Origin: Balanoglossus misakiensis
Lineage: Eukaryota > Animalia > Hemichordata
NCBI GenBank assembly: GCA_040954595.2
Contig: CM082578.2
Coordinates: 1,470,831 to 1,534,830, forward strand
Direction: 5' to 3'
Length of the DNA stretch: 64,000 nt
The notes under the pieces are model-generated. The model had not been told where the DNA came from and ran no database searches. It was given only the letters and a program-made list of their open reading frames with translations. Shown here in pieces: positions 3,006-29,800 of this stretch. Numbering within the stretch: the stretch's first letter is position 1; each line of letters opens with the position of its first letter. Both the position numbers and the translations under genes were made by a program.

Positions 3006-3042
3006 TTAACAATGCATGCTTAATTTGTCTTTGTTTCTGAAG

Positions 3043-3226: not shown

Positions 3227-3400
3227 GTATACATAACTTACTAACATTTCAGAAAAGGATGTTACAGAATTCTTAGAAACACGCACTCCCTTTATTCCTT
3301 ATGATTTAGAGTCATTAAGTGAAAGGTGGAAAGATTTTTGAATATGCTTCGTTCATTCTAAGAATGATCTAATTTCAGGGACTTGTTGATGAATTGTAAT

Positions 3401-4150: not shown

Positions 4151-4151
4151 T

Positions 4152-4499
4152 CAGTGTTTCCGCTACCCGCTCGCCAAATCGCAAATGCGAGTAAAAAATT
4201 GTGTTTGGCGAGACGATTTTCATACAAATTAGCCAAACTTGCGAAGCACTGCTATCTAACATCGTCGTTTCTTGTGCCATGATCAGCGCGAGTTCACTGC
4301 ACTACAACGCGTGAAAGTGGACCGTTGTTCTGTTCATTGATCATCACCCCCTGTATATCATGAACATCGTAAGGCAATGCATTGAATTCAGCTGTTGCGG
4401 CAGCATTGGTTTGGCTAATGCAAAGTCAAGTTTGGCTAGTAAATTTTCATGTCTTTTAGCCAAATTGCTAGAAGATTTTGAAACCCAGAGGAAACACTG
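4152..4499. mobile_element. hAT-like MITE, TIR CAGTGTTTCC/GGAAACACTG, 6-bp TSD GATAAT
   Basis: GATAAT at 4146-4151 and 4500-4505. The element is absent (single GATAAT) at the paralogous site ~63692. Confidence 0.75.
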
Positions 4500-4598
4500 G
4501 ATAATAAACATACAAATGCGGCACGACGACCCCTCACATTTATGAGTCAAAGTATTTGTCTGCATGCATTCTTATCATTGTGATCCTTGTTCTGACAG

Positions 4599-7129
4599 AC
4601 TGTCCCGAAATTGTGATTGGTGAGGGCGTGGTGACCAGTACAGATGATAGAAGCTATGATGTCACTGTCTCATTCCAATGCTTGGATGGTTATCAGAAAG
4701 TGTCTGGTACTGTCTCTTCTCTCACTTGTCTCTTTGGTGGAAACTGGAATGAAGAGGATCCTCTCAAGTTACCAGCATGTCAAAGTAAGGCAATAGTGCA
4801 CTATTCTTCGATATCAAATAACGTCAGACGCAGTTCCGTTGGCATTCAAATTTCCAGATGACGGGCAACATCAACAACTTGGTGCAGACAAAGACAGTGC
4901 AGATGAAACGCCATGAGGCTGATGAGGCACCATACCTGATACATGTTACGTGTCTGGTAGTTCTAAAGTAAAAACATACTCGGAAAAACTTTTACTGGAT
5001 GCCGAAATATTGTTTGCCCGTCATCTGGAAATGACAACACCGTGGGTCACATGGCCAGATCACGTGATTGATAGTAAAGAATTGGTAGGACCGAATCCAG
5101 TAGAAGGGGTCCAGCTAATTTCTACATAATTTGGTAGCTTTGAGGTCACTCTTTCAGAAGAAAAAAAAAAACATTATTAGAAACCCATTGCCTGTTGATT
5201 TCCAGTGCGTAAACAAGCCTACATTTCCTGTTCCACAGTTCAGTCAAGTTTAGGAGAAAACTAAAGTCGTCTCAATGTGAACTGTAACTCATGTAGGAAT
5301 TAATGACTTCTCGTACAGGTGTCATGTTGTTTGTAGCTATAAAATTTCTGTGATGGGAATTATTAATGTGAAGATATGATTCAATCTAACTTATATTTGT
5401 TTATTTTATGAACACTTAAAGGGACAAAGTCTCACTCGCTGCCCTTTTCCATGAATTATGTTTGATATAAGACACTGTTTATGTTATTCTACATGTGGGT
5501 ATACATGTATAGTGAATCAACGTTCGACCACACACAACTTCCATACTGTTGAGTAATGAGAGTAAAAATCTCGCCAAAATGAGTAAATGGTAGAGACCGA
5601 TTATTCATTTTGGCGAGTTTTTCACTCTTGTGTCTATAAATGGGATGGAATTTGTGTGTGGTTGAATGTTGTTTCACTATACCATGGTGTCTTGTATCAA
5701 AGATGATTAATGAAAAAGGGGCAGCGAGATAGACTTAATTTGTCCCTTGAATCTATTGTTAGTAACAACTTGAATGACACTAATTTGTTGTTTATTTTTT
5801 AGGAATAACATGTGGTGGACCCCCTGAGTGCAGCAGTGGAATTCTTACCAATGTTACCAGTACAGTGTATGGTGGAATTGCTTATTATCAATGCATTGAG
5901 GGCCATCAGTTTATAAATAATGTGACTTCATTGGAATGCCAAGCAGATGGTGTCTGGGGTCCGCTTGTGCCCCAATGCGAGCGTAAGTTGATATTTTTGA
6001 AAACAATTAAACTGTCATTGTAGTGCACACGTAGGAGACGGATTTTACAGGGTATATTGGCCTACTGTTTGGAGTAGAACAAAACATTGCATTTGGTACA
6101 GAGAACAAAAAATACTCTAAAACAGGTTATTTTCGCAACAGGAAATTTTCGCAATATCGAAAGAGGCAACTGTTATGCGAGGATTAATTTTCGCGTTTTC
6201 ATATATCACTAACTGCATTGTTATCTCTGAAAAACATTTTACGCGACTTTTTATTTACATGTTCTTTGGCTCTCGCGTATTTCGCTGAAATGTTTTGCTC
6301 GCGAAAATAGCCCATTTTGCAGTACTTAAAATAAAGCCAATTACAAGTTACTGTAGCTACATGTAATGTCCCTTTAAACTTTTTTCCTAGTAGTAACACG
6401 CTTGTGATGTTATCTGTTCATCTTACCCAAACAGCTCGTGAGTGTCCACCACCGAATGTAGACAACTACTTATCTTATGAAATTGTTAATGGTGATTCAT
6501 TGGTTTTTGGAACAACCATTGCCTACTCATGTCCATCTGGCTACAGTCTGACTGGCTACACTGTCTCTACATGTGGTGAAGATGGATCTTGGATTGGAGA
6601 TCCAGGATACTGTCAACGTAAGTCATTTAAGGACATGTACGTTCACTAAAATTGAAAGTATGGTCATTTCTTTTAATTGTTGATTTTTGGATTCGCCTTT
6701 GTATGTATAATGAAAATCAGTAATGAAATATACGGGTCACCGTGCTTGTTTTTGAAATACAGAGCCATGAATTCAGTCGATAATAGAAGAAAAGGAGTCT
6801 ATGGTATCTGGACTTTTATAGTGGGAACTTGGGGTGAAAAGGTTAAAGTTGTTTCACAATACAGGTACCTGATACATACCGGTATACCACAACCAAGTCT
6901 GAATCCACATAATCCATAAAGATGTTTTATTTTTTTTTACTTGCAGGATTAAACTGCAGTGACATACTCATAACAGACCAACATTTACAAGCTGTCCCAG
7001 ATAGTGGACCATATTATATGGGCAGCAACATCACATTCTATTGCGATGCTGGCTATGAATTAAATGGTGCTGATTATCTGACTTGTCAATCAGATTTACA
7101 GTGGAAGGATGCAATACCATCATGCATTG
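4599..7129 (+). CDS. Four sushi/CCP exons: 4599-4784, 5803-5982, 6435-6617, 6947-7129
   Basis: Each is a phase 1-1 exon with the C..P...C..GY...C...W...P.C pattern and canonical splice sites. Confidence 0.88.
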
Positions 7130-7173
7130 GTAAGTTCACATCATGATTGGTCTTCATGTGGTTGTCTGCTTAT

Positions 7174-7482
7174 TAGGCCAAAAAAGGAAATGTTTCTGGT
7201 CAGACCCTTCTTTAAAAACTGGTGGGGGGACGCAAATTTAAAAATAAAAATTTCCCTCAAGGGAGGAAGGCCGTCAGTTTTATAGTTTTTATCAATATAG
7301 TCACATGTACACTGTTCATGCAGTCATTGATTACACGCCCCAAAATGTCCAGTGATTTATATCTAGTTGAAGCAGTTTGAGTTTGCCGTGGCCGCCACCA
7401 CAAACCAGGAAAAAAATGGGGGTGACGCGCTGTTATTCAAGTGACCCACGCGCTGACCAGAAACATTTCATTTTTTGGCCTG
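7174..7482. mobile_element. MITE with AGGCCAAAAAA...TTTTTTGGCCT termini
   Basis: Terminal inverted repeats; elements with similar termini at ~21535-21810 and ~26145-26492. Confidence 0.55.
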
Positions 7483-7941
7483 AGTTATTGTAATCACTCC
7501 AGTAATTCGACTGCTCCATTAGTTTGACCACCCACTAATCTTTGGATAATTAATTATTCTAAAACCTCCAATTGTTCAACCAGTGCGTGACTGCATAATT
7601 CCCCCACCCCTCACCCCCAACCCCGGAGTTTTAATATCCTCATATAAGTGCCCTTTATCGCTACAGGAAATTTTTGCGACCGGAAATTTTCGCGATATAA
7701 AAAGCAGAAACTGTTACGAGACGATTAAGTTTCATGTTCTCGTATTTCACTGCATTGTCATCACTGAAAAACATTTTTAAGCGAATTTTTATTTTCACTA
7801 CGTCTTTTTTGGCTCTCTAGCGTAAAAATTTACTGTTTGCGAAAATTTCCCGGTGGTCTATTACCCAGCTAAACTTGTTGGTCCGAATTTTCCCCTTGGA
7901 CCTCTGGGATTTTGATCATATCTTGATGAATAACATTTCAG

Positions 7942-8711
7942 ATATCAATGAATGTAGTACATTGGTGGCACCATGTGGAATCAATCAAGTCTGTGAAAAT
8001 AGAGATGGTGACTATCAGTGTGCATGTCTGGTGGGATTTGAACCGGATGTGAATGGAACAGCATGCAAAGGTGAGACATACCCAGTCACATACAACATAA
8101 CTTCAAGTCACTATTCACATTTAACACATTCCAAACTATCTGGATAAATTTTTAGAATTTCCTTGTAATTTTAAATTTTCTTCAACAGACATAAGTGTTG
8201 CCATCACCTTGACACAACTTTATCATAATTTATCTTTTAAGTTCATTCACAACCTAAAAACAGTCATTTCCTGGAAATGTTCATCTGTTTTCTCTAAAAT
8301 ATCAGCTGAACTGTTTTGTAGAAGGAAATGTTCAACTAATTATTTCACAGATTTTTTTTCTCCCAAAAATTGCTGAATTTTTCACTGATTTCCCCCCCCC
8401 CCCTAAATTCAGCTGAATTTTACACTGATCAGACACTTTTGGAAAGGTGTGGCACAAATTACTGAACGTACATCCTTAATGCAATTTTTTAATCCAACCC
8501 ATGTTCCTTCTTTACTACTTTGTAGATATAAATGAATGTGCTTCACATTCTTGTGATCAACTTTGTGAAAACACTGCAGGTGGTTTTCAGTGTTCCTGTG
8601 AAGAAGGCTATCTCTTATATGCAAATAACGGCACAGGTGGATTCTATCTACCACCTGGAGAAACTGGTCTCTCAATGTATGATGTCTACACTTTTAACCA
8701 ATCATGTGTTC
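7942..8711 (+). CDS. Two calcium-binding EGF exons: 7942-8070, 8526-8711
   Basis: DINEC motifs, six Cys each, canonical splice sites. Confidence 0.9.
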
Positions 8712-9635
8712 GTAAGTATCATGTTAAACTATAGAGTTAAAGGTATATGATCACCCATGGAAAATTAGCTATAATAGTAACCATGGAAAATTGAAATCTA
8801 GCCAATCACAGACTTTCAGTGGGAGGTACACGTGAAAAAAGAGCGCCACGATATGTTCTTTAGAAGGCTCTAATATGCCATTTCAGCCATATATGGGCAT
8901 ATATAAATTGGAGGTGACTGTATACCTTTAACCAATATTTGTCATATTATTGACCTTTATACCGCAATGAATTTGCAGCGACAAAAATTGGACAAATGGC
9001 TGAATTTCATAATTGGATTTCATAATTTTGCCGTAATTCAGTTATGAAATGTGGAGAAACTCAGCAGACCAACTTTGCACCGTTATTATTCATTTTGGAT
9101 TTGTTTCTCTCCTGCTAACAAAAGTGTGCTCTCACCTTATGGCATGAACATGCATTGAATTCTGAGGAAAAGGGGATTAATACTTGAGTGTATTTACAAA
9201 GACAAACAAGCTCACTGGTAGCATTTAAAGGGGAAGTCCGGTTCAGCTACATAATTGGGTAGCTTTGAGGTAATTCTTTCAGAAAAAAACATTGTGTAGA
9301 AATTATGCATAAATCAGCTGAACAGTACTTCCCTTTTAATATTTCCAAGCAAGGCAATTGGTTTACTGCAACAATTATTACTTTGAAAACACAGTGTAAA
9401 ACAACAATCATGATATACCGGTAAATGTTACTTTAATAGATAGTCATACTTATATAAGCATGACTGTCTATGTTGGTCTGTAAGTTGTATTTGAAAGAAA
9501 AGTTTCATGTACGAATAGTACGAAGATTGACATTTAGTGTTCTATGTAATGGCTATAGTTTGTCATTCTATAAAAACATATATTAATTTGTGTGTACTTC
9601 ACCAATATTCTCTTCTTATTCCTAATCTTGTACAG

Positions 9636-11490
<1,855 letters not shown>

Positions 11491-11679
11491 TAAACATCGT
11501 GGTGTGCTGAAACAGTACCGTGATAACTTCTATGTTCATGTAGTGTGATATATGGAGAAATGGTTCAGAATGCCCGCTTCCAAAACAACAGAGAGGCTTT
11601 AAAAGCAATTTGAATGTTGAAGTGAAACGTGACAAACAGAATTCAATCAGCATAACCTCTATTGCCTCCATTGTCATAG

Positions 11680-12739
11680 AAACGGAAACGGTCACAGACA
11701 TGTCAACTGCAGAGCTTGGGACGACAGAAATGGATGGAACTGATAGAGCGGCAACAGAAGAGGAAGAAGTGACCACATTGCGGATGAAAATCTCCACAGC
11801 AGCTGCAGACACAGATGTTATGAGAACCACCAAGAGAGCACAGACAGATGGCATGGTAACCACAACGGCAAAAGTACACACAGATGATGTGGCAACCACG
11901 GCGACAAAAGTACACACAGATGATTTGGTAACCACGACGGCAAGAGTACACACTGATGCTCAAACAAGAGATGCAACAGGTACGTCAAGTACAAACATCC
12001 ACTGAATATCTGAAAACAATATGACAAGTTTACTTTACAGATGTCCTCTCAGTGGAAGTGAAAGTATCTCATTTCTTTTAATTGTGGATTTTTGGTTTCT
12101 CATTTGTTAGCATAATGAAAAGCTGTATAATACAGGGGTCACCATGATTGAATTTAGTCATGGCCTTGTGTAGTTGAAAAACAAACAAACAGCTGAGTCA
12201 GCATTTCTTCACCCAAAAACATTTAACGATATTTATCTCTGAATAGACTGTGGTGACCATACAATTTTATTTGACCAATGAATTTATTTTCATTTAACTG
12301 AGCTAAATTGTCATGAAAATGACAATAGTAGTGAGTTTATATCAATCTAATCCCATGCGAAGAGACAAATGTGCACGAATTTGCGCAGTTTACAAGTTTA
12401 CGTTCTGTGTGTACATCAGTAATAGGTTGTGTAGCAAAATGTAGCAATAACATCCAAATTCCATTCCAGTCAAGTTATTTATCATATAGTTATATTAAAT
12501 AATTGATATTAAATAATCATTAGTGAGATCTATGGAATCTCACATATTTTAATGCAGAATGACTTGATTTCCATATGCAGGTTATGAGGCGCCATCAACG
12601 CAGGCAATCACTGTGACTGAAAGAAAACCAACGACAGATTCAGATAAAGAATTTACAACATCTGAAACTACTAGTGCACCACTTTCAACTAAAATATCAA
12701 CAACAAAACCAGTGACACCTTCTCATGATGTATCAACAG
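11680..12739 (+). CDS. Mucin-like Thr-rich exons 11680-11979 (33-bp repeats, TTAKVHTDDVA) and 12581-12739
   Basis: Phase 1-1 exons, open and T/S/E/D-rich. Confidence 0.75.
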
Positions 12740-13430
12740 GTAATTATACTGTGTATTCGTATAATTCGTATTCATATCAGTATTTGTCCTTTTATTGCCA
12801 CAATTTAAGAAAGGAATATATTTTGTGGCAGAGAAATGGTAAATACTTAATACCGTATACCAGTATATCTAATTTTTTACATTGGCAATATGGAGCAAGA
12901 AACATAGCATAGCGCTAGTCAAGTCTTGCCCCATTGTCACATATATAGTAATATACATTGCAATTACTGAACAATATTATGGCTTCTGCTGAATGTGTGT
13001 GTGTACCGATAAACTGTGCATATTGACTGGCAGTGAGGGCAACAGCATACATTTGTTTCCCTAAGGGACTGTGAGTCAACCCAGAACAGTCTGTTTTTAG
13101 AGGCTGAAGGCCGATGGAAACAGATTGTTTTGGGGGTAATTTGCATTCCCGAGGGGACACAAACGTATGCTGTTATCCGAACATGGCTAGTCGATATGTG
13201 TTTCAGTATCAGAAAGCAGCACAAATCAGGAAATTTCTCTGCTGTACATCATCAATTGGTCTTCATTGTAGATGATATATCACCACTGTACAAGGTCCCA
13301 TACCTGTAAATAAATGATAAAAGCTTACACACAAACACATTTCACCAGATTAGAAAATGTACCACACAAACCCATTTTAGGATATTAACTCTTCTCAAAG
13401 AATATCTTGCTTGTGTTGTTGATTTTACAG

Positions 13431-14720
13431 TCAGTAGAGATTGTGGAACCTTTGAGACTTTTGTAAACGCAACTTGTGAGAAGTACATTGAGACAACAAC
13501 TGATGGTACCTGTTCATTTGGAACATTCTACACAAGTATGGTCGCTGGTATGGCCAATTTTCAAGATTCACATGTAAGTATAAAGTTAGTTCTTGAAAGT
13601 CTATGTACCGCTAAATGTTTTGCTCCAGTGTCAATACTGACCAGATTGTCTCCAATTTCTCATTGTGATTTGTAACATTGTTATGAATGATTTTATTTTG
13701 TCTTGTTTTGTGTGTTGCACTGTATTTTTTTAAATTTCTCACCCAAGATTGATTTAATCACTAAATGTACTTGAAAAAAACTGCATACTGTAGTATTTCC
13801 AGTGTTGTCTAAAGGAGTTTTTTGGTTTGTGTAATTGCAGGTTTGCGGGCAATGCCTGAATGTGATTGGTTCAAATGATGCATCTGTAGTTGTCCGGGTA
13901 ACAGACATGTGCATGTACCCATACTGCATGATTGATGAAAATGGTCTGGTTCTAAGTCAGGATGCTTACAACATCTTGTCAGATGGTGAAAGTCCTTCAT
14001 CTCTTCTTGTATCCTACTCAGTTGTTGCCTGTCCTGAGGATGTCTCTATCAAGTTCAAGGTTTGTGAAACAACACAAGTATTAACTAATTTAGATACCCT
14101 TGTCTTAAATTGCTACTTAAAAGTAAATATTCACTTGTAGTTGTCACATCACTGCAAAATTGTTTGAAACCTCACAAGCCATCTTCTTAACAGTATTTTT
14201 AACTCATGATTGTCTATGGGGCCGAGCCTCAACGCATATACACAAACTTTGTGTGTGTGGACACAATGCTCTGAGTTTATCATAGGCAAATAGTGTCTCA
14301 CATTTTTCCCTGTGTGAACCTGGTATGTGTCATTCATTTTGTGAGTGTATCACATATTGATTGATTAATTTGTTTATTTAGTTTGCAGAGAGCATTTCTG
14401 CATCATTCAGCTTATTAATATTGGATCATCGTTACCCTGTCACCACTGTGGAAGTCCACACAACTGGTCCCTGGATTTAACTCTAGACAGACTCAGTGAT
14501 AACTTATTTGAACCACCCATTGGTTCTGGTGATATACAAGCCCCTCTCAATGTCAAGGTCTATTCGGTGTCTGGTAAAATTAACTACAGGGTTAGAGAGT
14601 TTCAGTTTGGTGAGATTATTGACACCTCCAAGCAATTTCGACATTGTGAGGATGATGAGCTTGAAGTTACTACACTTCCAGACTTTGGAATAGTTACAAC
14701 AATCGAGAGTACGCTTGAAG
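13431..14720 (+). pseudogene. Expansin-like domain copy 1 (exons 13431-13573, 13841-14059, 14382-14720); 2-bp insertion gives TAA at 14478-14480
   Basis: DGTCSFG...CGQCLNVIG...SVVVRVTDMC...LVLSQDAY...VSYSVVACP (DPBB) followed by HRYPVTTVEV...GPWI (CBM63). The third exon is 339 bp versus 337 bp in copy 2. Confidence 0.8.
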
Positions 14721-15239
14721 GTAAGATTGTGTTTCAGTTTCATAGTTTAGGTCCAATTTGGTATATACCAGTATACATATATACTACACCATGGGACCTT
14801 ATGGGATCAAGGTAGTCTGTCTGTCTGTATGTCTGTATGCCTGTCTGTCTATCTGTATGTATGTACTGTTAAACGGGTCATTTTCGTGACGAAATTGTTC
14901 ATGATATCAATGGAGGCAAATGTCTCGCTAGGATTAATTTTCATGATCTCTTATTTTTACTGGATAGTTATTTCTGAAAAATATTTTATGTGACTTATTA
15001 TTTTCATGTATTTTGGCTATCGCATATTTCACGAAAAATTTAATGCTCGCGAAAATAACCCGTTTTACAGTATGTTTGTATGTATGGATGGATGGATGGA
15101 TGCATGCATGTATGAATGTATGTATGAATGTAGGTATGAATGTAGGTATGAATGTATATTAAATGCAAGTAGTGGACATTCTATGGTTTGTGAGAAATCA
15201 GAAGCGCTTATTCTTCATGTATCCTTCCTGCCAAAACAG

Positions 15240-15851
15240 ACGAGATGCAATCTACTCAGGAGGGTCCAACAACATTGCCTGGGTACATTACAACCCGGGG
15301 GCCTGAGACTGATTCCTTCACCAGTCGGTCTACAAGAACTGAAGTGACAAGTGGAACAACAGTTTCATCTGAAGAGATCACAACTGGTCTCCACTCGACC
15401 ACCCATGTTATAGTCACAGATCAGGATGAAGTCAGCTCAGCAATATCCGAGACTGTCACAACTGCAACTCTGTCAACAACAAGCGTCAATCCTACGATAC
15501 TTTCAACGATGGAAGATGAAGAAGACACCACAGAAACAGCAACAAGAACTGATATAGGCCCAACTGCAACAGATGTAACAAGTGCTCAAAGAGCAACTAC
15601 TGATATCAAGCCTAACCCAACAACAGCTGAGCCAGTCACACAAAAGTCTTTGACAACAGAATATGAAATCAGGTCAACAGAATCCAAAACAAGAATAGTA
15701 ACAGATGTAGATACAAGTACATCCCTGCCTACAACTAGTGTCCAAGAACTGACCACCGAACGCACTGAATTTCAATCGAAATCTTCGGAACCACTTTCAA
15801 CTAAAATATCAACAACAAAACCAGTGACACCTTCTCATGATGTAACAACAG
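15240..15851 (+). CDS. Mucin-like Thr-rich exon between the two expansin-like domains
   Basis: Open 612-bp phase 1-1 exon. Its 3' end (PLSTKISTTKPVTPSHDV) duplicates that of exon 12581-12739. Confidence 0.8.
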
Positions 15852-16230
15852 GTAATTATACTACGTATAAAGACTACGCATGTAAACTCGTCTTGGGCAG
15901 CTAATGGTTGCCACTCAGAATAAAAATAGCTAAAAGATACAAAAATGGACCTTTCAGACATTATGAAAAAAAGTCTTGTACATTGTTTGCAATTGCCAGC
16001 AACTGTCCAAATGCACACTATTTGGCTGAAATTCAGCAGAAGTGTACAAGTCATGGAGCCTTGGAAGCAAAGAAAAATACGCCTGTTTTTCAAAAATCAG
16101 TATCGTTTATGACATATAACATTACACCCTCAATTTTTGTGCATAAATTATTTTTTATAGTTGTGTGATTCTGATTGAAACCAAGATTACATATTGATTG
16201 AATATATGTTAACATATGTTGTTGTTGCAG

Positions 16231-17767
16231 TCAGTAGAGATTGTGGTACCTTTGAGACTTTTGTAAATGCAACTTGTGAGAAGTACAGTGAGACACCAAC
16301 TGATGGTACCTGTTCATTTGGAACATTCTACACAAGTATGGTTGCTGGTATGGCCAATTTTCAAGATTCACATGTAAGTATAGATAACGTTAGTTCTTGA
16401 AAGACTATGTACATGATTGGCTGTGATGTCAATACTGACCGGATGGTCTGTCATTTCGAGTCATTGTGATTTGTAACAATTTTTGTTATGAATAATTTTA
16501 TTTCATCTTGTTCGTTTTTGTGTGTTGCGCTGTTTTTTTTAATTTTCTCAGCTAAGATTGATATAATCGCTTTGTATTTGAAGAAACCCTGCTGGCTTTA
16601 GTACTTCCAGTGTTGTCTAAAGAAGGAGATTTTGGTTTCTGTGATTGCAGGTTTGTCGGCAATGCCTGAACGTGATTGGTTCAAATGATGTATCTGTAGT
16701 TGTCCGGGTAACAGACATGTGCATGTACCCATACTGCATGATTGATGAAGATGGTCTGGTTCTAAGTGAGGATGCTTACAACATCTTGTCAGATGGTGAA
16801 AGTCCTTCATCTCTTCTTGTATCCTACTCTGTTATTGCCTGTCCTGAAGATGTCTCCATCAAGTTCAAGGTTTGTGAAACAAAACAATTATTAACTAATT
16901 TATATACCCTTGTCTTTAATTGTCACATCTTGGCAAACTTGTTTGAAACCTCCCTAGCCATTTTTTTAAGTATTTGTAAGATTGAAGTTGAAATTGTCAA
17001 GAGTATTCATCTGTTTCTTTACTGGAAGTTTAGATCTCCTGGAAATCAAACCAGTCTCAACTGATTTGGACAAGGGAAATTCCAGTGGGGACTAGGTCAT
17101 TGACAATGATTTGTTGCAAATACTGTAAAACGGGAAATTTTCACGCCAGGAAATTTTCGCAATATCAAAAGAGGCAACTGTTACGCGAGGATTAATTTTG
17201 GCGTTCTTGTATTTCACTAACTGCATCGTTAAATCTGAAAAACATTTCACACGACATTTATTTTCACGTCTCTTTTAGATCTTGCGTATTTTGCGAAAAT
17301 TTATGCTCGCGAAAATAACCCATTTTACAGTAAGTCTTGCTCTAAATTTCAAAGTATTAGGACCAACCAGGGACTGTGTTGTTCATCTTTTTAGTGTACT
17401 GCATATTGATTGATTGATTTGTTTATTTAGTTTGCAGAGAGCATTTCTGCATCATTCAGCTTATTAATATTGGATCATCGTTACCCTGTCACCACTGTGG
17501 AAGTCCACACAACTGGTCCCTGGATTACTCTAGACAGACTCAGTGATAACTTATTTGAACCACCCATTGGTTCTGGTGATATACAAGCCCCTCTAAATGT
17601 CAAGGTCTATTCGGTGTCTGGTAAAATTAACTACAGGGTTACAGACTTTGAGTTTGATGAGATTATTGACACCTCCAAGCAATTTCGACATTGTGAGGAT
17701 GATGAGCTTGAAGTTACTACACTTCCAGACTTTGGAATAGTTACAACAATTGAGAGTACGCTTGAAG
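16231..17767 (+). CDS. Expansin-like domain copy 2 (exons 16231-16373, 16651-16869, 17431-17767), open reading frame
   Basis: Spliced product (phases 1-0-0-1) is a full DPBB + CBM63-like domain: ...LDHRYPVTTVEVHTTGPWITLDRLSDNLF...PLNVKVYSVSGK...TSKQF. Confidence 0.82.
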
Positions 17768-18314
17768 GTAAGATGGTTTCATTTTATACAATATGTAATT
17801 ATTTTACTGTATAACATAGGTCAATGTTGCTGATGATTTCAATGGAGTGTAGCTGAATTTGTTACATTAGTTGTGATATCTGATATTGTGTTTTGCACAC
17901 CAATATCTGGTACACTCTTATGCAAAATTTTCGCAAGAGGAAATGTTCATGATATCAAATGTGGCAACTGTTACGTGGCGATTAATTTTCACGTTCTGGT
18001 ATTTCACTGCATCGTTATCTCTGAAAACCATAAGCGACTTTTTTTTTCACCAGTAAATTTATCGTTCGTGAAAATTTCCTATTTTACTGTATTTTGAATA
18101 AGAAATCTCAACACCCTCATAAACAATTGCATTAAAGAAAGCAATAGAATAATAACACAATATCATTTGAATCACACACCGGGATGAGAATACCTTGAAA
18201 TTGTCTCCTGCCAGGAACATTGATTCAATACTGTTCATGTTAGTGGAGAACAATATAACATTAGATTTCCTTGTTCTAGATTATTAAAATTGTAATGTTC
18301 ATTTTTATCAACAG

Positions 18315-19531
18315 ATGAAACAACGCTGGAATATTTAACTAGTCCCTACACCGAAGGCACAGAAAAAAGCATCTCAACTGATGGACATGCCATAACTTCG
18401 CCCAGAATGACAACTGTGTTGGACACAGACAATATACCGGCTGTGACAACTGGAAAAAGCAAGTCAACCACAACAGTTACTATGGTTACAGTAACCATGC
18501 CTGTTGTCGTGACAACAGTAGAGGCAAGTTCTGAAAAGCCTGATCAGCAGTCAAGCACAGAAGGTGAGGGTACATACAAGACAACATCTGCTCCGATCTC
18601 AAAAACAGAAATGATGTCAACAGCAGAATCTGTGGATATTACTCCTGCAGACCAGACTTCAGAGTATGACGATGCAAGTGATGTGATGCCAACAGAGTCA
18701 TGGACCACACCAGAGAAATTGTTGACAACAAACAAAATGGACGCCACCACACCAGAGACACTTTTGACAACAAATAAAATGGACGGCACCACAGAATATT
18801 GGCAAACGGTAGAAGGCACCACAGAATGGCAAACACAAATGATAACTGATGATACTGCCAATTCCCAAAGAAGAACAACAAGAAAACATACAACTGAGGC
18901 ACCGACAGATCTGTTAACATCAAAAGGTGAATGTATACGAATTTCTACACTTTTCAGCATTATGAGCTCCAAAGTAAGGATTGATCTTGTTTACTTAGTT
19001 GACACGACTCTAGCTCCTGGATGACACCATTATTTTTAGGGGGTGAGGGGTGGAAGAAAGGAGAAAACATATTCACTCCTCACTTTTTTTTCAAAGAAAT
19101 GTAGGTTTACTTCCTATTATGATAAAGTAAACTATGAATAATAAAACATTGAAAATTTGGCTTTATTGATAGAAACTTCATGTACGGGTACAGTGAAAAT
19201 TTCAATTGAAAAAAAAAAATTCATAATACCTGCAATGTAAACAGTCATACATTGTTAGTTACCATCATCATCGTTGTTTGAATCAGACTCTATGTCACAA
19301 ATGAGGCAATAACAATGCTCAGTGCAATTGATCTGTATACAGTTGGTCAAATAACTCTTCCACTCTTATCATATAGACACCCATGTCCAGTGTGTAATAT
19401 AAAGTATTCATTCAATTTCATTTATACAGTATAACATGATGTCAGTACTAAACCAACTACGAAACCAGCAACAACTCTGAAAGCCACAACAGGTGGTCTT
19501 ACGACCCTACCAACTCCAACTCAACTACCAG
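18315..19531 (+). CDS. Mucin-like exons 18315-18926 and 19430-19531 (the second has an in-frame TAA at 19432-19434)
   Basis: Thr-rich with a 42-bp repeat (TTPEKLLTTNKMDA); phase 1-1 splice sites. Confidence 0.7.
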
Positions 19532-19954
19532 GTAAGAGATATTACCCTTAGTTTGGTTGATAACGTGTTGTATTTGAGTGATGTCTCAAAGTGTTAAAAC
19601 AAAACATCCAGAAAACTTGTTTTTGGAAGTTAATTTAAATTGCTTGTCACATAATAGTTGTGTAAACAATGGTCACACCAAAATGTTCTCCTATATTTAC
19701 TTTCAGAAAATATATACTTTTAGGGGATTCTCGATAATTAACAGAACTTGATAATTAACAGAGAAATGTTTATTTCAAAAAGTGATTTTTTTTCTTGTAT
19801 CTTTCATACACACCATGAAGTAATAATACAGTTAAATTTAAAATCAGAATAAACCACAAAGAGTTGAACCCATTTATGCTTTGAACAAATTGACCTGAAG
19901 AGAATAGGAGTTGTATGGGTCTGTATTTACAATTAATTGATAATTACTTTGCAG

Positions 19955-20957
19955 ACCGTGACGTTCCTGACTACTGTGCACAGCTTAGTGTGTCATATAA
20001 TGGTAGTGGGCAGATTACAGACCAGCAATCCTGTGGCAACTACTATGGTACAGAAATAACAACACAACTTGTTAATGGTTTAACTCAACTCCTGTCTCAA
20101 GATCCATCAGGAGCATGTGTTCCTCTTGCTGGTCTGGTTACAATCAATATCGCATTATCCATAAGTCTCACCTCGCTATCGGATAATTCGGTGGGTACTC
20201 TAACTGTCTCTTTCAGTCTTGCAGAAAATCTTGTAGACTCTTTCTGGAGTCTAGAATATTACACTCAACAAATTGTTCACTTCATAGCATTTTATCTCAC
20301 ATGCTCTTCAGATTGCATATCCAAAGAAAAAATGCATATTGGGAGAATATTTTCATGCAAATGTGACAACCATGCGATGTTTAATTTTGTCGATACAATC
20401 GATCGTAAACTGCTCAGCTGAAACAGTGAGCAGTCATCTTTCTTTTTTGTTTACGTGCGTTGGAGTGGGGATGTCTTGAAACCGTCCGCATAACAGTACA
20501 TACCTGTACACGGTGAGTTGGGGCGCCTTGAAACTTAAGGCGTATTTAACACGCGTTCCGTACGTACCGTTCCGTATGGCTTTTTAGTACACGCTAAATT
20601 CTATTGTTCTTGGTGCCAGATGCATAATAATAAAGCATATTAAACATAACATCTTTTAAAACAAATGCTTATGACTGTATTTTCATTACCTGCAGCTTTT
20701 AATGGATGTGGGGCTGAACTTACTGATTGAACCCATAGACCCATTGAGCCCTGGATACGACAATGCAGAATTGTTGGGATGTGGTCTTCAACTAATCTTT
20801 TATCTGACCAACCATCCAAGTGTATTTCCAGTTTTGGTTGCCATTGACAGTTCAGACAATTGTCCAGAACTATCATCTTCTGCAAACCCAATTCAAGAAG
20901 ATGATGCAACATTCTGTTGTCCTGAAGGATATGAGCTCTTCCAGAATGTCAGATGCA
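19955..20957 (+). CDS. uif-type SEA-like module, extra copy (exons 19955-20190, 20696-20957)
   Basis: DRDVPDYC...C.NYY...LTQLLSQ...C | ...CGLQLIF...CPELS...CCPEG. Homologous to exons 23386-23606 and 24467-24707. Confidence 0.7.
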
Positions 20958-21426
20958 GTATGTATAAAATCATTATTTTTATTCACACTAAAGTGGCGCT
21001 TATATCTCTTCTTTTCTTTTAAGGATGTATGCGCAGAACATAAACCGGAAAACTGCACGCACCCGTCTTTTTCCCATAGGATTACATTGATAATTGCTAG
21101 AAAACAAACTTCTTCTATTGTCATTGTCACAAAATTTTCTACATAGCTCAGTCCAGTAAATATAAATTCATTGGTCACTTAAAATATAAGGGTCACCTTG
21201 CTCTATTTTGAGATAAATTGCATTAAAAAAAAATTTGCCCATAGACAAACCATTGGTGAAAAATGCTGAATCAGCAGTTTTCTGCTATTATCGACTAAAT
21301 TCGTGACTCTGTAATGTGTATTTCATAAACAGGCACGGTCATCAGGTAAATGCATGCTATGAGCGGTGTGTTACAAGCATGAATTAAGTATTACTTACAG
21401 AAAAAAAATTCTTCTTATTTCAACAG

Positions 21427-21525
21427 CAGCCGCAGTGGAAGTTGTGAGGAAAAGAAGGGATGCATCTGAACAGTCATCATTTCTCACTAATGCTAAATGG
21501 AATGGCACTGCACCTGTTTGTATTG
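21427..21525 (+). CDS. Exon with a furin site (RKRR) and the C-terminal end of the split sushi (KWNGTAPVC)
   Basis: 99-bp phase 1-1 exon reading AAVEVVRKRRDASEQSSFLTNAKWNGTAPVCI. Confidence 0.8.
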
Positions 21526-22204
21526 GTATGTTCATTAGGTCAAAATAAAAAAATATGTGCTGTTACCAATTACCCGACCTACCCTAAGTATAACCCGCTG
21601 ACCCTAAACATTTTAGAGCTTCCTAAACCGGAAGTATAAAAAACAATGTCAAATATACAAAATTTATGAAAATTGCAAGAATCACGTAAGAATTATGACG
21701 TTATTCTTATACACTACGGCGGCCAGAGTAATAAAAAAATGCAACATAAAAAAACATTCCCTACCTACCTACCCTATTTTTGAAAACCATGTAATCAGAA
21801 CAGCACAATTTAGCAATTTATCCGCCAGATTGAGTTCTTGAATGAAATCACCAATGTTGGAATTGGATTTTAATGTTTGTTTGTGTTTCATTCTAATTTG
21901 ATTCTGATTGTGTTTCATTCTGATTTGATTTGATTTGATTTCATGCATTGTCTGCCTGCTTTCATTTGTGGAAATCACAAAGCTTATAAATGGTCCATCA
22001 TTGGAGTGGTTGTCAACATCACTGGGAAAAAGGACGATGTTCAACTGGTTTAGCAATTGGGGTTGTCATGGAGCCACCTACAGAACAGTTCTTCTCCCAG
22101 CTGAATTCAAGATTACTATGTCGCTTTAATGGCTGGCAAGTATTGTGGTTACAAACTTGGCAGATTACAGTCTCATATCTTATGAAATATTTTTTGGCTT
22201 GCAG

Positions 22205-25200
22205 ATACCATGCCACCAACTTTAGACTGTCCAGACACGTACGTAATTCTTGTTGATGAAGTGGAACACAATGTGTCATATCCAGCAGTCTCTGTTGTAG
22301 ACAACCACGGAATCAGTGACGTCATATATGAACCACCAAATGGAACTGCAGTTGAAACCAGGAACTACCGGTACATCACAGTGACTGTTACTGCAACCGA
22401 TTACAGTGGCAACCAGGCTCAGTGTCAATTTGATGTTTCTGTTCAACGTAAGTGTTCAGCTAAACTAGCCCACTAGTCGCTTGGTGAATTTTGAATCTCA
22501 ATACTTTTGTGTGTTTGTGGTGATTTTTTGTCTTTATAATACTTTTTGTGTGCATGCTGCTTTGAGCGTTTTTCTGGTACTGAGTTGAGTTTCGAAAATA
22601 ATGCAAGAAGTGGTGGCAGAGACTTTAAACATTTAGAAGTTAATATGGCATTGTTTTGAGACATTAGACATTTCACCTTTTAACATCTCATTTTGTTATT
22701 CAGCTGATACATGTCCAGAGTGGTCACTACCTACACCAGAAGGTGGACAGAAGACTTGCACCCGTGTCATGGGAGGACCACTGGGTTCAGGATTCTCATG
22801 TGCATTGTCCTGTCAAGCTGGTTATGATTTCATTCAAGAAATTGATTCACCTGGAGGAATGTACACCTGCATAATTGGTGGAACATGGCTACCCCATAAT
22901 TACGTACCTGATTGTGTTGGTGTGTATGGGCTTCTACTGATCTATTTTTGCGTAATTGAAATTCAACTGATATCATATCAATATTCATTAGGCCCCCAAA
23001 ATAATATGTGAATGCTGATGCAGATAATAAACTTGAAGAACCAAAATAACCAACTAATTCAGTGTTACTGTTGGTTCAAATTTTCTCTGTATATTGTTGA
23101 TATGTGAGGGAATTTGTGTTTTCAGTTTGCTATGTGTGCCCTTATATAAACTGATCATTTTATAATCAGTCAATACCTACATTTTTATAATCAGTCAATA
23201 CCTACATTTTTATAATCCGTCAATACCTACATTACCGCATGGAAGATGGCACTAGTCCAGATTTGAGTTGATTAGCAAAAATGGGATTTTTTCACCAGCT
23301 TAGTAAAGCGAAAACTGGATTGACGATTGACAATTCAAATAGTTGGCCTGAAGTTAAATTCTCTTCCATATTGATCTTTCCACAGAGAAGGAAGTTCCAG
23401 ATTATTGCCTGACTGTGGGAGGTGTATACAACTCTGTGATAACCATTCCAAGTGATACCAACCAATGTATCTCATATTACGAGTCGAGTCTGCTTGGAAT
23501 TGTGCAGTCTGTTGAACCACTGTTGTCGGTCCTGTGTAACTCGATTGAAGACAGTGTTGAAGTTCAAAGTGACTATTCAACAATGGCCATAGTAGACTCC
23601 AATCAGGTATTATTATATGTCCTGCTGGAAAATTTTACAGTTTTATGATGAAGAAGAAGGTTGATGTAATCCTTTATTTGATTTCTGTCGTTACATTATT
23701 GTACAATGTGTTACCCTAAGGTTGGGTTCTCCAAGGTGTGTCATTTTTAAGAAGCATTATCTTGTTATTGGAGGGACAAAGTCTCTCGCTCGCTGCCGTT
23801 TTCCCATTAATTATGTTTGGTACAAGACACAGTTTATGTTATTCTACATGTGGATATATAGTGAATCATCATTTGACCACACACAACTTCCATCTTGTTT
23901 GTAGGATATGAGAGTAAAAACTCGCCCAAAATGAATGAATGGTATTCATTTTTCGCGTGTTTTTTCACTGTCGCGTCTACAAGAGGATAGAAGTTGTGTG
24001 TGGTCAAACATTGATTCTCTATATATCCACATGTAGAATAACATAAACAGTGTCTTGTAATTGTATCAAACATAATCCCTTTAAATGCTCCATAATAGCT
24101 TTATCTTTTTGCTACGTTTTCAGTGTGTTTGTTTTGTGTATCTACTGCAGTTTCTTGTTCAAATACCTGAAGAATCATAAAATGTTGAGCATTTGGCTTA
24201 ATATCAACACAACATATATGTGAATGGTCAGCATTGTTATTGTGCAAAATTTAATTTCAGACTAGAATTCATTTGTCAACAATAACAATGGCTGTTACAC
24301 GCATACATGATAAGTACTGGGTATAGTAACATGCTGTTTGGAGTAGAACAAGAAATAGCGTTTGATACACGGAAGAAAATACTGAAAAAAAGCCAAAAGT
24401 TACAGCTACTGTGTCCTTTTAATCCATTAAACCAAACTTTCTATTTGGTGTTTTTCATACCGGTAGGTGAATGCAACAGTTGCCATGAAATTACTTGCAA
24501 AGACAGACAATGCAACAAGTTTAGATCTCCAAACCTGCGGTGATAGTATAATGAGTGCAATTACAACTCAGTTCAGTCAATTTAACAGTCTCATCAAAAT
24601 CGAGGCAAATGGTGCTTGTCCAGAATTGAATCTGTCAGGAGCCCCAACTAATGAGTTCTCAGGATGTTGCTGTCCATCTGGAAAGATTCTCAGTGACTGT
24701 TATTGTTGTAAGTATCATCAATCCAATATACCTTGAACCAAGAGTCTAAGTTTATGGTGTCAATTACTTGTCAACTTATAAATATTTTCATCCCAACCCA
24801 CTAGTGACTTATACTGGTGTACCATATGCTTCGACATATCTCCAAGGCTTACATGCATATACACCTTACACAACAGCTTATAAACAGCATCATTATCATC
24901 ACAATTTATCCTGATATAATTGTTCATAGACAGTTGCTCCGAAAAAATGCATAATTTAATTAGTACAGTAAAACCTGTCTAAACTGAACCCTGTCGAATC
25001 TGGAAACCTGTCTAAACCAAACACATTGTCCTGTCTCTTCGACATACATGTAGAACACCATGTTAAAAGAACGTCTATAAAACCAAACACCTCTGCAAAC
25101 TGAACAGTTTCTTCAGTCCATTTGGTGTTCAGTTAAGACAATTTTTACTGTACTGGTATATGTGTCACTTCTGTGCCTTGATGAGTTAAAGGGAAGAGGT

Positions 25201-26714
25201 TGTCCCACCGCGTGGGTGTCCTCCTTGATGAGAATATGTCCTCCAATACAAGCACAAACCCCACTGCAGTCATCAAGACGTACTAGGATCTTCAGTTTCT
25301 GTCATGCCCAGTCTATGCTGCGGTTGGCTGCTTTGTTATTCATCCTAAGAATTATCTATTTTCAGAGATTTGTGGATGCATTATAATGTTTATAAACAAA
25401 CAAATGCGTCGCGATGACCCCTTCACTTTAAACATCTTTGTCTTTTTAATCTGTTACATCGTAGTGACGTGTACAGCTGGAACTTATGATACAGGAGATG
25501 AATGTGCTAGCTGTCCTGTTGGATCTTATCAAAATTCCGCTGGTCAAACATCATGCATTACCTGTCCATCAGGTTATAGTACACACGATAAACACAGCAA
25601 GAGTCAAGATGACTGTATTGGTAAGAGAAATAGTCTATAACGAATACCACATCATCTCTGATGAGCTAGCACTGTGACTGACAGACTCGTTTATTTTATT
25701 CCACATACGGTTTTGGTAACACGTACAAACGAGATTTTAAAAAAAGCCATTACATGAATACTTTGAATTTTACAGATCGCACATCATGCAAACAAGGTGC
25801 TTCTGTTGGATGTAATTGTAAAAAACTGTGTTGCTATTGACTTCTCTAGATTTCAATCTTTTTATGACGTGATGATTCAAAACTAAATAGTACATGCAGT
25901 TTATGAATATATAGTGTTTAAGGTCAAATTGTGATCTTTTTTTAACTTTTAGAGTTGTGCAAACCTGGCTATTACTCAGATGATGGTAAAGCTCCATGTA
26001 CACAATGTGTGCAAGGATCTTATCAACCAGATTATGGTTCTACTGATTGTCATCTGTGCCCAAATGACACGTCAACACACGGGGTAGCAGTTGTAGTAGA
26101 GAGTTGCAAAGGTAGGAAGATTATTTTACAATGCCAAGTTTTTATTGGGCCAAAAAAATAGTATATGCTGTTCTGATTACATGGTTTTCAGAAATAAGGT
26201 AGGTAGGTAGGTAAGGATTTTTTTTTATTTTGCGATTTTTTTTAGCTCTCAATGTGCATTTCACATCAGAAAAAACTATAGTGTAGAAGAATGACATCAT
26301 AGTCCTGCGTGATGTGCGCGATTTCGTCATAGTTCTCGCATGATTTGCGCAATTTTCATAAATTTTGTATGTTTGACAACAATGTTTTTTTTTACTTCTG
26401 GGTTTACGAAGCTCTAAAAAGTTTAGGGTCAGCAGGTTATAATTAGGGTAGGTCGGGTAATCGGAACAGCACATATTTTTTATTTTGGCCTCATTTCATC
26501 TTTTCCAGGATACAACATCATATTAAAATTTCAATTTGTATTTAACTTCCAGAAAAATGCACAGTTGGCTCATATTCCAACACTGGTCTTGAGCCATGTG
26601 TACTTTGTCCCCGTCACTATTACCAGAATGAGAGTGGTTCCAGAGAATGCAACCCATGTCCAACAGGACTGCGTACAACGCATGAAGGTGCCAATAGTTT
26701 GGATGACTGTATAG
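22205..26714 (+). CDS. HYR (22205-22447), sushi (22704-22919), SEA-like module (23386-23606, 24467-24707), three GCC2/GCC3 (ephrin-receptor-like) repeats (25465-25620, 25953-26111, 26553-26714)
   Basis: PPTLDCP...DNHG...TATDYSGNQAQCQFDV (HYR) and CPVGSYQNSAGQTSCITCP-type repeats, with canonical splice sites. Confidence 0.88.
24964..25152. mobile_element. pogo/Tigger-like MITE (TACAGTAAAACCTGTCTAAAC...TTTTACTGTA)
   Basis: TA-flanked TIRs. Relatives at ~36500-36620, ~43779-43955, ~46380-46561, ~48287 and ~57206. Confidence 0.65.
25187..25432. mobile_element. TTAA-flanked Kolobok-like non-autonomous element (second family)
   Basis: ttaaAGGGAAGAGG...CCCTTCACTttaa, with an inverted copy at ~42533-42758. 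Confidence 0.55.
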
Positions 26715-26858
26715 GTAGGTACATTTGGCATAAAAATTGAAGGGTTTACTTATATATTGATTACATATTCTTTTCCTATTTCTTGAGTTTCTTGCAAAAA
26801 AAAAACATATTGACCAAATTTGATCATTATGGTTTTATGTTTACATCGTTTATTTCAG

Positions 26859-29800
26859 TTATTGATATATGCGAGTACATGTCGCCTTGTTTGAATGGTG
26901 GTACCTGTACCAACACTGCAGATGGTTATAGCTGTCAATGCTCAGCACATTATATTGGGTAAGCAGTCGAATATGTTCTCTTGTTATGTTAAAGTGTTTT
27001 ATCATACATGCAACACCTGTATTTAACACTTTCTATTGTTCTCGCCCCGAAGATATTATACGGTATTTCACAATGTGAAAATATCGCGTCCGCGTCTCGG
27101 CGCGACAGTTCGCTGCGCGCGCGAGCGACGCACGAGCCATAGGACTCTAGTGGAGAGGGGTGTTGTAAAATTCGGTTATTAGAAGCTGTAATAAAGTTTT
27201 CAAAGCTGGCGGTTTTGTCATGTTTAGTTCTCCGAAATTCTCAATGCAAAATAATTGTTAACATGATATTTTGAAAGAGAACGTAGACAATTTTATTTAG
27301 AATGCGGATGTGCCCATCGTAATGAAAGCTGCCAACCCCCTTAAAATGATACTACGGCCCACACATCATACGTCACAACATGGCTACTGCCGTGATCCCA
27401 GCGCCCGGTTCAAATTTGAAATTGTTTTTCTCGGCGCATTTTCGCAAATCGTACTGTTTTATAGGTAGGCATGTATGATAAAGGGGTTATTACACGAATT
27501 TTGGTCGATAACGCGACGCATTCTCGTGATGTCCGTATTTTGACTCGTTGCGCAGCGAAACTCGTCAAAATACGGACAATCACTCGAATACGACAGATAT
27601 ACCTAATATATATGCACCAGTATCGGCGCATTTTCGCAAATCGTACTGTTTTATAGGTAGGCATGTATGATAAAGGGGTTATTACACGAATTTTGGTCGA
27701 TAACGCGACGCATTCTCGTGATGTCCGTATTTTGACTCGTTGCGCAGCGCAACTCGTCAAAATACGGACAATCACCCGAATACGACGCGTTATCGACCAA
27801 AATTCGTGTAATAAACCCTAATTATTTGCGCAAGTGTGCACATACATTGTACAGATATACCTAATATATATGCACCAGTATTTATTTAAGCAATAAAACA
27901 CCCCCAGCCATGGTATACCACGAGATTTTGACCAGTTCACGACATATACGCACGAGCGATAGCGAGTGCGTATATGGAGTTGAACTGGTCAAAATCGAGT
28001 GGTATACCATGGCTGGGGGTGTTTTATTGCTATTATATTATGCCAGTATATTGAAACTTTGCATAAAACATTTTAAAAAGGCATTTTCTTTGACTATGAT
28101 ATATGACTGTGGTATATGGCTAATATATCACGGTCACATGTCGTGACTCGACCAATCAAATAGCTTGATTTACACCATCAATATACTGGTATAATATAAT
28201 TCCTTATAACAAACCTGAAAGATCCATAAAGGTTTGTAATGTTCAGCTTATGAGGAGTATGCTCAAAATCAGAGGAATTGAAAACATATATCCCAAATTG
28301 AACAGACATATAGTCATTTGCCAGTGGCATCACAGAGATGCATCTGATCATAACTTAGTGAAATTAGATGCCATTGTCTCATAATTATACATTTGTATTA
28401 CTACCTTCATGACTACATGTTTACGAAAACACATGGAAAGGTGTAGTACCTTTGTTCTAAGGACCACTTTCATTAAGTCATTACTGGTAATTGTACATAC
28501 AAATCTCCTGAAGAACACTATCCATGGTAACATCTATGTGTTGATTAAGAATCAATTTAAGTGAAGTTAAAACACATTGGGCTGTTCTAAAACTTCAGAT
28601 TTCTTCCATTATGCAGGAGTAAGACTTGCAAGTTGCAGTGTTGTATAAAAACAATTAATCTGTAGTTCTGAAATAGTGAAGGCAGGTATTTTGGAATTGT
28701 TTTACTTTGTGCATATTTTATGGAAACTCTTTGTTTTCTTATAGAAATCAATGTGAAATCCCTGCACTGTGCAGCAGTGAGCCATGTCAGAATGGTGGCT
28801 TGTGTGAAGAATTCAACACAACAGACATACAGTATGCAACCTACAGCTGTCTGTGTCTAGATGGATACTCAGGTGATCTTTGCCAGATTGATGTGGATGA
28901 GTGTGCTTCTGATCCGTGCCAAAATGGAGCCACCTGTATTGACCTCATTGCTGATTATAACTGTACATGTGCACCTGGATATGAAGGGGGAGACTGCTCA
29001 TTGGATGTCAATGAATGTGCAGATGACCCTTGTGACTTGGTTGGAACCATGCAATGTCAGAATTTGATCAACGACTTTGCTTGCCAGTGTAAAGCCGGAT
29101 ATACAGGAGAGCTGTGTGAAGAAAATATAGGTAATTCTTCGCAAACTTTTGTTTGAATCAAGTGTTGATCTAGGAAATTCTTGAAAGTCCCAGACTTTGG
29201 AAAATGGGAATGTTAAATACGCTGGAATAGAAAATCTTTTAGTCTTCTCCAAAATGTCATGTACGTAATTTTATCTGACAAATAGAACTTAGTACAGTAC
29301 AGTATAAACAACTGGTATTATATCCACCTTATTCTTAAATCTTTCTTCATAATCTCATAAAATCTAAAATTTTAATTTTTATCACAGATGACTGTCAACC
29401 AAATCCTTGTCACAATGGTGCAACGTGTCTAGATCGTGTGAACTCCTGGAGATGTGAATGTGTGGAAGGATTCCGAGGATCGATGTGTCAACATAACATA
29501 GATGATTGCCAGGACGTTCTCTGCCAAAATGGTGGAACGTGCCAAGATGAGGTCAATGGATTCACATGTGCATGTGTTTATGGCTGGACTGGTGAGTCTG
29601 TTGAATGTTTGTTGTCGTACGAAAGTACATGTTTCAATTTAAAGGGACATTACCTATAACTTTTGGCTTTATTTCCAGTATTTTTGTTCTGTGTACCAAA
29701 TGTTATGTAATTTTGTACACTGAACAAAACAGCATGCTATATATGCCCAGTACTCTACTTGTCACCATAGTATGTATGTGCATAACAGTCACTGTTTATT

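Follow-up and report, generated by a model that had tools for sequence, protein, structure and literature searches.

Does a receptor-like gene of an acorn worm carry expansins, and if it does, what might they be doing there? The question is raised by a 64-kb stretch of Balanoglossus misakiensis DNA (contig CM082578.2; the whole stretch is called the window below, and all coordinates are window based), in which an initial annotation had read two tandem groups of three exons, copies A and B, as modules of the EXLX1 type displayed on mucin stalks in a Uif-like receptor. We report that both copies are, judged from sequence, homologous to expansins, that the residues on which loosening and cellulose binding depend were replaced in them, and that a gene of the same kind is present in Saccoglossus kowalevskii.

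Two modules with homology to expansins

Copy B is made up of three exons on the forward strand, located at 16231..16373 (exon B1), 16651..16869 (exon B2, the DPBB core) and 17431..17767 (exon B3, a CBM63-like domain 2, open and of phase 0-1), and splices to 699 nt, giving an open unit of 232 amino acids (aa) with phases 1-0-0-1. On the same strand, copy A consists of 13431..13573 (exon A1, of phase 1-0, with the N-terminal portion of expansin domain 1), 13841..14059 (exon A2, with the DPBB core and linker; phase 0-0) and 14382..14720 (exon A3, a CBM63-like domain 2). An AG acceptor and a GT donor were present at all six module exons. The earlier description of two three-exon copies, each a symmetric phase-1 module, thus held for copy B and failed for copy A, which splices to 701 nt: 2 surplus bases in exon A3 near 14478 (a sequencing error or a recent lesion), a frameshift which that description overlooked, lead to a stop at unit codon 153, and as assembled this copy falls short of an intact phase-1 module. 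The motifs quoted in the initial annotation were found in copy B, with CRQC in place of the CGQC of copy A.

The exons of copies A and B were 95-98% identical, and intron 1 was 78% identical. The ratio of non-synonymous to synonymous differences per site (pN/pS) between the copies was 0.34 (10 synonymous and 11 non-synonymous changes; binomial P = 0.013), and the duplicated unit takes in the end of the upstream mucin exon (12678-12750 versus 15790-15862). Contigs of another individual or haplotype (X1, identical to X2; one sample, ~2-5% divergent), which were judged to be DNA-like since they continue across introns, contained the 3' end of A3 with its own intron, plus B3, so that the duplication is not merely an echo of the assembly. 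One of these contigs (depth 3.6), compared with 16231-16700, was an apparent mosaic of A and B around intron 1 and possibly reflects gene conversion in an allele, the presence of a third copy or collapse of the contig. RNA run X21 yielded 6 partial reads among 13.0 million and apparently came from another organism.

Homology to expansins was assessed with several profile and sequence searches. Pfam DPBB_1 matched exon 2 alone in copy A (E = 2.9e-4) and copy B (E = 2.5e-3), in both cases under the gathering score; the Pfam scan gave no match for exons 1 and 3 and no Expansin_C match. In NCBIfam, expansin_EXLX1 (NF041144) was the sole family for three of three window exons tested, with E values of 1.3e-7 for A2, 4.6e-5 for B2 and 5.6e-6 for B3; exon 2 aligned with profile positions 39-109 and exon 3 with positions 119-193 of 194. 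Measured against the cut-off of this family (100 bits), single exons scored 23-31 bits and the whole three-module S. kowalevskii protein, described below, 221.7 bits summed. With a hidden Markov model (HMM) made from bacteria only (12 bacterial expansins), the spliced units of A and B scored 70.3 and 64.9 bits, respectively, far above the best of 1,000 shuffles (6.9 bits), and when the same model was run against the six-frame translation of the window, in 1,649 pieces, only four pieces were found at E ≤ 1, all of them module exons. Exon B3, searched against PDB sequences, had Bacillus subtilis EXLX1 as its best match (E = 0.009), and three of its five matches were expansins; exon B2 alone had no PDB match at E ≤ 10. 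Among the top Atlas matches for domain 2 was Expansin_C at 0.87, which was treated as a lead only.

An AlphaFold2 (AF2) model of module 3 of the S. kowalevskii protein (predicted local distance difference test [pLDDT] score, 70.7; predicted template modelling [pTM] score, 0.62) was then compared with known structures. All 12 Foldseek matches at E ≤ 0.001 were expansins, and so were the top five VIA matches (Z, 10.0-12.4; root mean square deviation, 4.9-5.8). Combined with DPBB_1, NF041144, the PDB search and the bacteria-only HMM, this model supports the EXLX-like fold that had been proposed, and modules A and B are expansin homologues in which a DPBB domain precedes a CBM63 domain.

A Uif-like host gene with a counterpart in Saccoglossus

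A HMMER search with exon B2 against 1.84 billion representatives returned seven matches, the best of which (E = 1.7e-29, in three stretches) was XP_077862127.1, an S. kowalevskii protein of 4,825 aa named 'uncharacterized protein LOC100378937'. Two further matches were free two-module expansins from P. flava and S. kowalevskii, and four (P0002, P0004, P0006 and P0007) were dropped as repeat-rich false positives of prokaryotic type. XP_077862127.1 contains Lectin_C (CLECT), LDLa, three CUB, sushi, EGF, HYR, Ephrin_rec_like and LamG/pentraxin domains, a predicted signal and a hydrophobic (transmembrane) segment near the C terminus. Its three expansin modules, at residues 1272-1475, 2161-2364 and 2539-2741, have Thr-rich stalks between them, and its RefSeq record already carries a precomputed DPBB_1 match.

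The window exons lie in a multidomain gene on the forward strand (3034..36167), the start of which lies upstream of the window and in which CUB, sushi and EGF domains are followed by a stalk with the expansin modules, HYR, Ephrin_rec_like, an EGF array, LamG/pentraxin and HYR. This gene was collinear with residues 517-4201 of XP_077862127.1, apart from repeated domains, which paired with alternative repeats; a second gene copy (47-61 kb) was the only place in the window where CLECT, the first CUB domains and LDLa were found. XP_077862127.1 is a probable orthologue, as it is collinear exon by exon and shares the stalk along with its degenerate modules, which are 41-44% identical; it differs from the window gene in having three modules versus two, independently amplified, and in being complete to the transmembrane segment. 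The Uif-like nature of the host gene, claimed from the start, was borne out both by domain scans of the window and by this collinearity, and the module exons are likely spliced into a Uif-like protein.

The stalk exons, all on the forward strand, begin after the last sushi (CCP) exon (11291..11470; phase 1-1), which has a Thr run at its end. They comprise a Ser/Thr-rich exon at 11569..11979 (Ser plus Thr fraction, 0.27) and mucin-like exons upstream of copy A (12581..12739; fraction, 0.42; 3' end duplicated at 15790-15862), between A and B (15240..15851; 203 aa; fraction, 0.41) and downstream of copy B (18315..18926; 203 aa; fraction, 0.35). All of these flanking exons were of phase 1-1 and their Ser plus Thr fraction ranged from 0.27 to 0.42, and these Ser/Thr-rich exons are regarded as real. 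A candidate micro-exon at 19430-19492 (63 nt, Thr rich, phase 1-1) has TAA as its first full codon, and the frame is kept if it is skipped. Provided that copy A and this 63-nt micro-exon are skipped, an open chain of 973 codons connects the final sushi exon, by way of copy B, with the conserved exon that comes next.

Loss of the loosening and cellulose-binding residues

As stated in parts of PMC5072189 and PMC11040781, loosening by EXLX1 requires Asp82 and also Asp71, Tyr73 and Thr14, and its binding to cellulose requires W125, W126 and Y157. Equivalent residues were mapped by motif, via a printed EXLX1 alignment and an alignment of 21 rows, comprising five receptor modules (window A and B plus three of S. 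kowalevskii), four modules of free expansins and 12 bacterial expansins. The position of Asp82 was occupied by Val in all five receptor modules (exons A2 and B2 included) and by Asp in all 12 bacterial rows. Likewise, the equivalents of W126 (Ser, Pro or Ala) and Y157 (Asp or Asn) were non-aromatic in 5/5 receptor modules and were W and Y in 12/12 bacterial rows; W125 was represented by a gap or Ser, and exon B3 is accordingly without the W125/W126/Y157 platform. Since Asp82 and the aromatic platform are absent from all five modules, canonical cellulose binding is unlikely; it was rejected as a function, as was loosening, and the cellulose binding or sensing suggested by the initial annotation was not supported.

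Other features were retained. The Asp71 equivalent was present in five of five receptor modules, and a tyrosine in domain 1 was invariant across them. The receptor modules were acidic (isoelectric point [pI], 4.3-4.5) and shared 61 invariant columns, including the non-cysteine motifs LDHRYPVT and IDT; these columns, together with the pN/pS of 0.34 between A and B, indicate that the modules are still constrained. In the free proteins, module 2 retained most of the EXLX1 residues and module 1 had partly lost them. We conclude that the receptor modules are putative pseudo-expansins, in which the fold would be retained and the classical surface lost.

Free acorn-worm expansins and the origin of the modules

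Free-standing expansins of acorn worms include S. kowalevskii APU50764.1, which GenBank lists as 'expansin-yoaj protein-like protein 170', S. kowalevskii XP_006812919.2 and P. flava XP_070533744.1. They are the nearest free relatives of the receptor modules (25-33% identity) and group with them in the tree; they differ from them in being secreted, unfused two-module proteins of 430-510 aa whose second module retains most canonical residues. Two of them (P0011 and P0003) had a degenerate N-terminal and a near-canonical C-terminal module, and P0011 ends in a hydrophobic tail, a possible membrane anchor signal. In the Atlas, 'expansin-yoaj protein-like protein 170' belongs to a 55-member cluster in which Hemichordata is the commonest phylum (phylum known for 7 members) and which has an amoebozoan (Evosea) cluster as a neighbour at 0.92.

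Word-index searches were also made. With exon B3 against proteins of 164-2,000 aa, 0 of 64 candidates held up, and with an S. kowalevskii module against shorter proteins the result was 0 of 2,045; given that free relatives do exist, this search was insensitive here. The module region against proteins of 2,653-8,444 aa gave 1 of 1,280, the query itself. None of these blanks implies that the fusion is absent from other animals.

An unrooted tree was built from the 21 rows, leaving out L008 (stops and masked bases) and L002 and L010 (duplicates). The five receptor modules formed a single group (support, 100/100), which joined the free expansins' N-terminal modules (97/96); together, the nine animal modules were separate from the 12 bacterial rows (99/98). 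Placement of the receptor modules with the Streptomyces rows was rejected (approximately unbiased test [p-AU], 0.0016), as was a one-to-one pairing of copy A and S. kowalevskii module 1 as orthologues (p-AU, 1.4e-4); rejection of the latter pairing implies that tandem amplification was separate in each lineage (or that copies were homogenised). From these relationships the modules were likely recruited from the acorn worms' own expansin family, and the acorn-worm expansin is a bona fide animal gene, probably of microbial origin. With a narrowly sampled and unrooted tree, horizontal transfer from a putative donor is no more than plausible.

Other sequence collections were searched as well. Among viral contigs none of 12 pattern matches was confirmed; for metagenome contigs the count was 0 of 594 and for GTDB 1 of 77, and in the phylum of that one genome 7 of 401 genomes had a match. 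An expansin of a Bacteroidota metagenome-assembled genome (L001:556-1812) was 43-44% identical to the free acorn-worm module 2 and continued after it into a C-terminal tail, presumably akin to a secretion sorting domain. Three expansin genes, two of them adjacent, were present in genome G146 (compare L009).

Relation to known expansins and receptors

By sequence and fold, the modules come closest to the microbial EXLX proteins (B. subtilis EXLX1/YoaJ, 2bh0; Streptomyces, 9ms5; Talaromyces, 7wvr; Clavibacter, 4jcw; NF041144), with which they share a DPBB followed by a CBM63-type domain, the motif order and D71; identity with the 12 bacterial rows was 16-29%. Unlike these proteins, the receptor modules have no equivalents of Asp82, W125, W126 and Y157 and score under the family cut-offs, and whereas the microbial forms occur as secreted stand-alone proteins or as fusions with GH5 or CBM2, the receptor modules are split by introns and lie in a giant animal membrane protein. 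Drosophila Uif resembles the host protein in its CLECT, three CUB, CCP, HYR and many EGF domains and its transmembrane segment, as given in the relevant part of PMC3340373, but fly Uif carries a pair of FA58C domains, and that part lists neither a mucin nor an expansin region. No FA58C match was found in the whole-protein scan of XP_077862127.1, a scan which also missed the Lectin_C domain later found by a local scan.

Expansin-type domains have been described in other animals, namely, a GH9-expansin of Oikopleura (10.64898/2026.03.31.715263) and expansins of nematodes and bivalves (10.1101/637728), but those forms are secreted or enzyme fused and related to cellulose, none being reported from a transmembrane receptor with sushi and EGF domains in the portions of these two sources concerned, and in the nematode expansin-like proteins (10.1101/637728, same portion) the domain order is reversed. 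According to that part of the 10.1101/637728 survey, it was unconfirmed whether the expansins of metazoans are genuine genes of the animals or contaminants; for acorn worms, intron-split modules in an animal gene of two species settle the matter at the genome level.

The claim of novelty stood in part. The expansin-in-receptor fusion is apparently real and undescribed, whereas free expansins were already named in GenBank (APU50764.1) and the fusion was already in RefSeq as an uncharacterised model. No paper was found on acorn-worm expansins or on an expansin in a sushi/EGF receptor, although supplements not read may bear on this (PMC4729200; 10.1101/637728, Supplemental Table 3; PMC13342648), and the sole work naming both 'expansin' and 'Saccoglossus kowalevskii' applies expansin to nematodes. 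Of the supplements searched, two PMC4729200 files and eight PMC11175523 files gave 0 matches.

Proposed role and alternative explanations

We favour, at slightly better than an even chance, the view that the modules are non-loosening phase-1 cassettes of expansin fold in a Uif-like surface gene and act in adhesion or recognition. Modules shuffled among the extracellular proteins of animals typically have symmetric phase-1 ends. In the proposed history, acorn worms own a free-standing, secreted two-module expansin gene, probably microbial in origin, one module of which, probably the partly degraded N-terminal one, would have gained phase-1 ends and entered the stalk region of the Uif-like gene by exon shuffling. 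Tandem amplification would have followed in each lineage, giving 2 copies in the window gene and 3 in S. kowalevskii; Asp82 and the aromatic platform would then have been lost, and the cysteines and core kept by purifying selection. At the apical surface, the acidic modules, spaced on an O-glycosylated stalk, may touch mucus, glycoproteins of the matrix or some protein partner and would contribute to a matrix-organising role of the Uif-type protein, not to cellulose loosening. This would be one of few clear examples in which a domain of probable microbial origin was turned into a symmetric phase-1, shuffled module of an animal surface protein, with loss of the ancestral active surface; the free paralogue with canonical residues is a natural control, and the role of expansins in a deposit-feeding deuterostome becomes testable.

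Several points weigh against this reading. Bacterial expansins were part of the AF2 alignment, and the fold and sequence matches are therefore not fully independent evidence; window exon B3 folded weakly when modelled alone (pLDDT, 64.3) and had no Foldseek match at E ≤ 0.001, the top 11 rows, all above that level, being expansins or a group-2 pollen allergen. Splicing into the receptor is a prediction for which the S. kowalevskii support is a single RefSeq gene model. The residue alignment is gapped and uncertain at W125 and T12/T14, and the ligand for adhesion or recognition is putative. As for origin, a topology in which the four free modules group without the receptor modules was not rejected (p-AU, 0.12) and the receptor stem was long (1.54), which makes descent from the N-terminal free module tentative; moreover, the tree holds no plant, fungal, amoebozoan, oomycete or other animal expansins, and 8 of its 12 bacterial rows were gathered with an animal query. 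Finally, the window gene copy is damaged (frameshifts near 14478, in A3, and near 36105; 3' residues unmatched) and may be a truncated duplicate or faulty assembly.

This last point leads to the alternative that fares best, namely, that the locus is a truncated and decaying segmental duplicate, the working fusion being sited at another place in the genome or confined to relatives, which we regard as doubtful and well short of an even chance. It would account for the two frameshifts of the first copy and for the absence of any match to residues 4202-4825 of XP_077862127.1, which include the transmembrane segment, between 36167 and the next gene in the window. A second copy from ~47-54 kb, with a frameshift and a 14-nt deletion of its own, and near-identical repeats of 5 kb and 2 kb point the same way. 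However, a change in homopolymer length could account for three of the four lesions and likewise for three of the four indels that separate the 5-kb repeats, a pattern suggestive of long-read error and a noisy assembly; tblastn with XP_077862127.1 gave only two frame changes across more than 30 matched segments of the first gene copy, and the A/B pN/pS is low, at the value given above. Such decay would in any case bear on the locus and not on the existence of the fusion.

An unlikely alternative is that the modules still bind foreign polysaccharide (peptidoglycan, chitin or an algal glucan) through a remodelled surface, serving as a food or microbe sensor on a mucociliary epithelium. The retained fold, D71 and the invariant tyrosine of domain 1 are consistent with this, as are the avid binding of EXLX1 to peptidoglycan (PMC5072189, in part), the putative carbohydrate binders CLECT and FA58C of fly Uif (PMC3340373, in part) and the use of mucins in acorn-worm feeding (PMC4729200, in part); in XP_077862127.1, which has CLECT and no FA58C match, the expansin modules could take that role. 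Against it stand the loss of the type-A CBM platform and Asp82 in 5/5 modules, the strong acidity (pI as above), which is unfavourable for anionic walls, and the second module of the free paralogues, which retains canonical residues and could do the job itself. A bolder version, to which we likewise give little credence, would have a microbial wall-loosening protein domesticated, stripped of its cellulose face and shuffled into a Uif-type receptor, there to recognise microbial or algal surfaces in feeding mucus in place of the discoidin domains of fly Uif; if true, a horizontally acquired domain would have turned into a mobile animal receptor module.

We consider it quite improbable that the modules act as inert spacers, stabilised by disulfides and lacking a ligand, which make the mucin stalk stiffer or longer. 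The loss of all known functional residues except D71, the variation in copy number between species and the amplification of stalk sequence along with the copies would fit such spacers, but 61 columns are invariant at 41-44% between-species identity and some motifs are confined to the receptor clade, a pattern for which constraint on the fold alone could suffice.

A separate nested gene or contaminating microbial DNA as the source of the exons is very improbable, for even though no RNA junction was seen and contamination could not be excluded for metazoan expansins in the part of 10.1101/637728 concerned, the exons have spliceosomal introns, the same strand and phase-compatible ends, copy B has no start or stop of its own, the GC content is as in the rest of the window and the position is the same in a second species, the introns and second species ruling out contamination.

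Second gene copy and other features of the window

Matching to XP_077862127.1 ended after the second HYR domain, and repeats occupied the gap in the interval 36167-43000. It is followed on the forward strand by exons at 43005-45679 of a possibly partial gene with a CRAL_TRIO_2 domain, which we take to resemble the C terminus of GDAP2.

The second Uif-like gene copy (47166-64000, starting at about 47-54 kb) possibly reflects segmental duplication or uncollapsed assembly. Its LDLa and CUB exons at 47166-52238 recurred at 56086-61161 (5-kb repeat, 99.4% identical), its CLECT exons were located at 54542-55363, and 61546-64000 was a repeat of 2105-4822; the frameshift in this copy lies near 55262 and the 14-nt deletion near 63915. 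Simple-sequence tracts at ~34800-34950 and 55400-55750 (a CAT/CAC repeat and a GA-rich purine tract) gave rise to spurious open reading frames, both His-rich and low-complexity ones.

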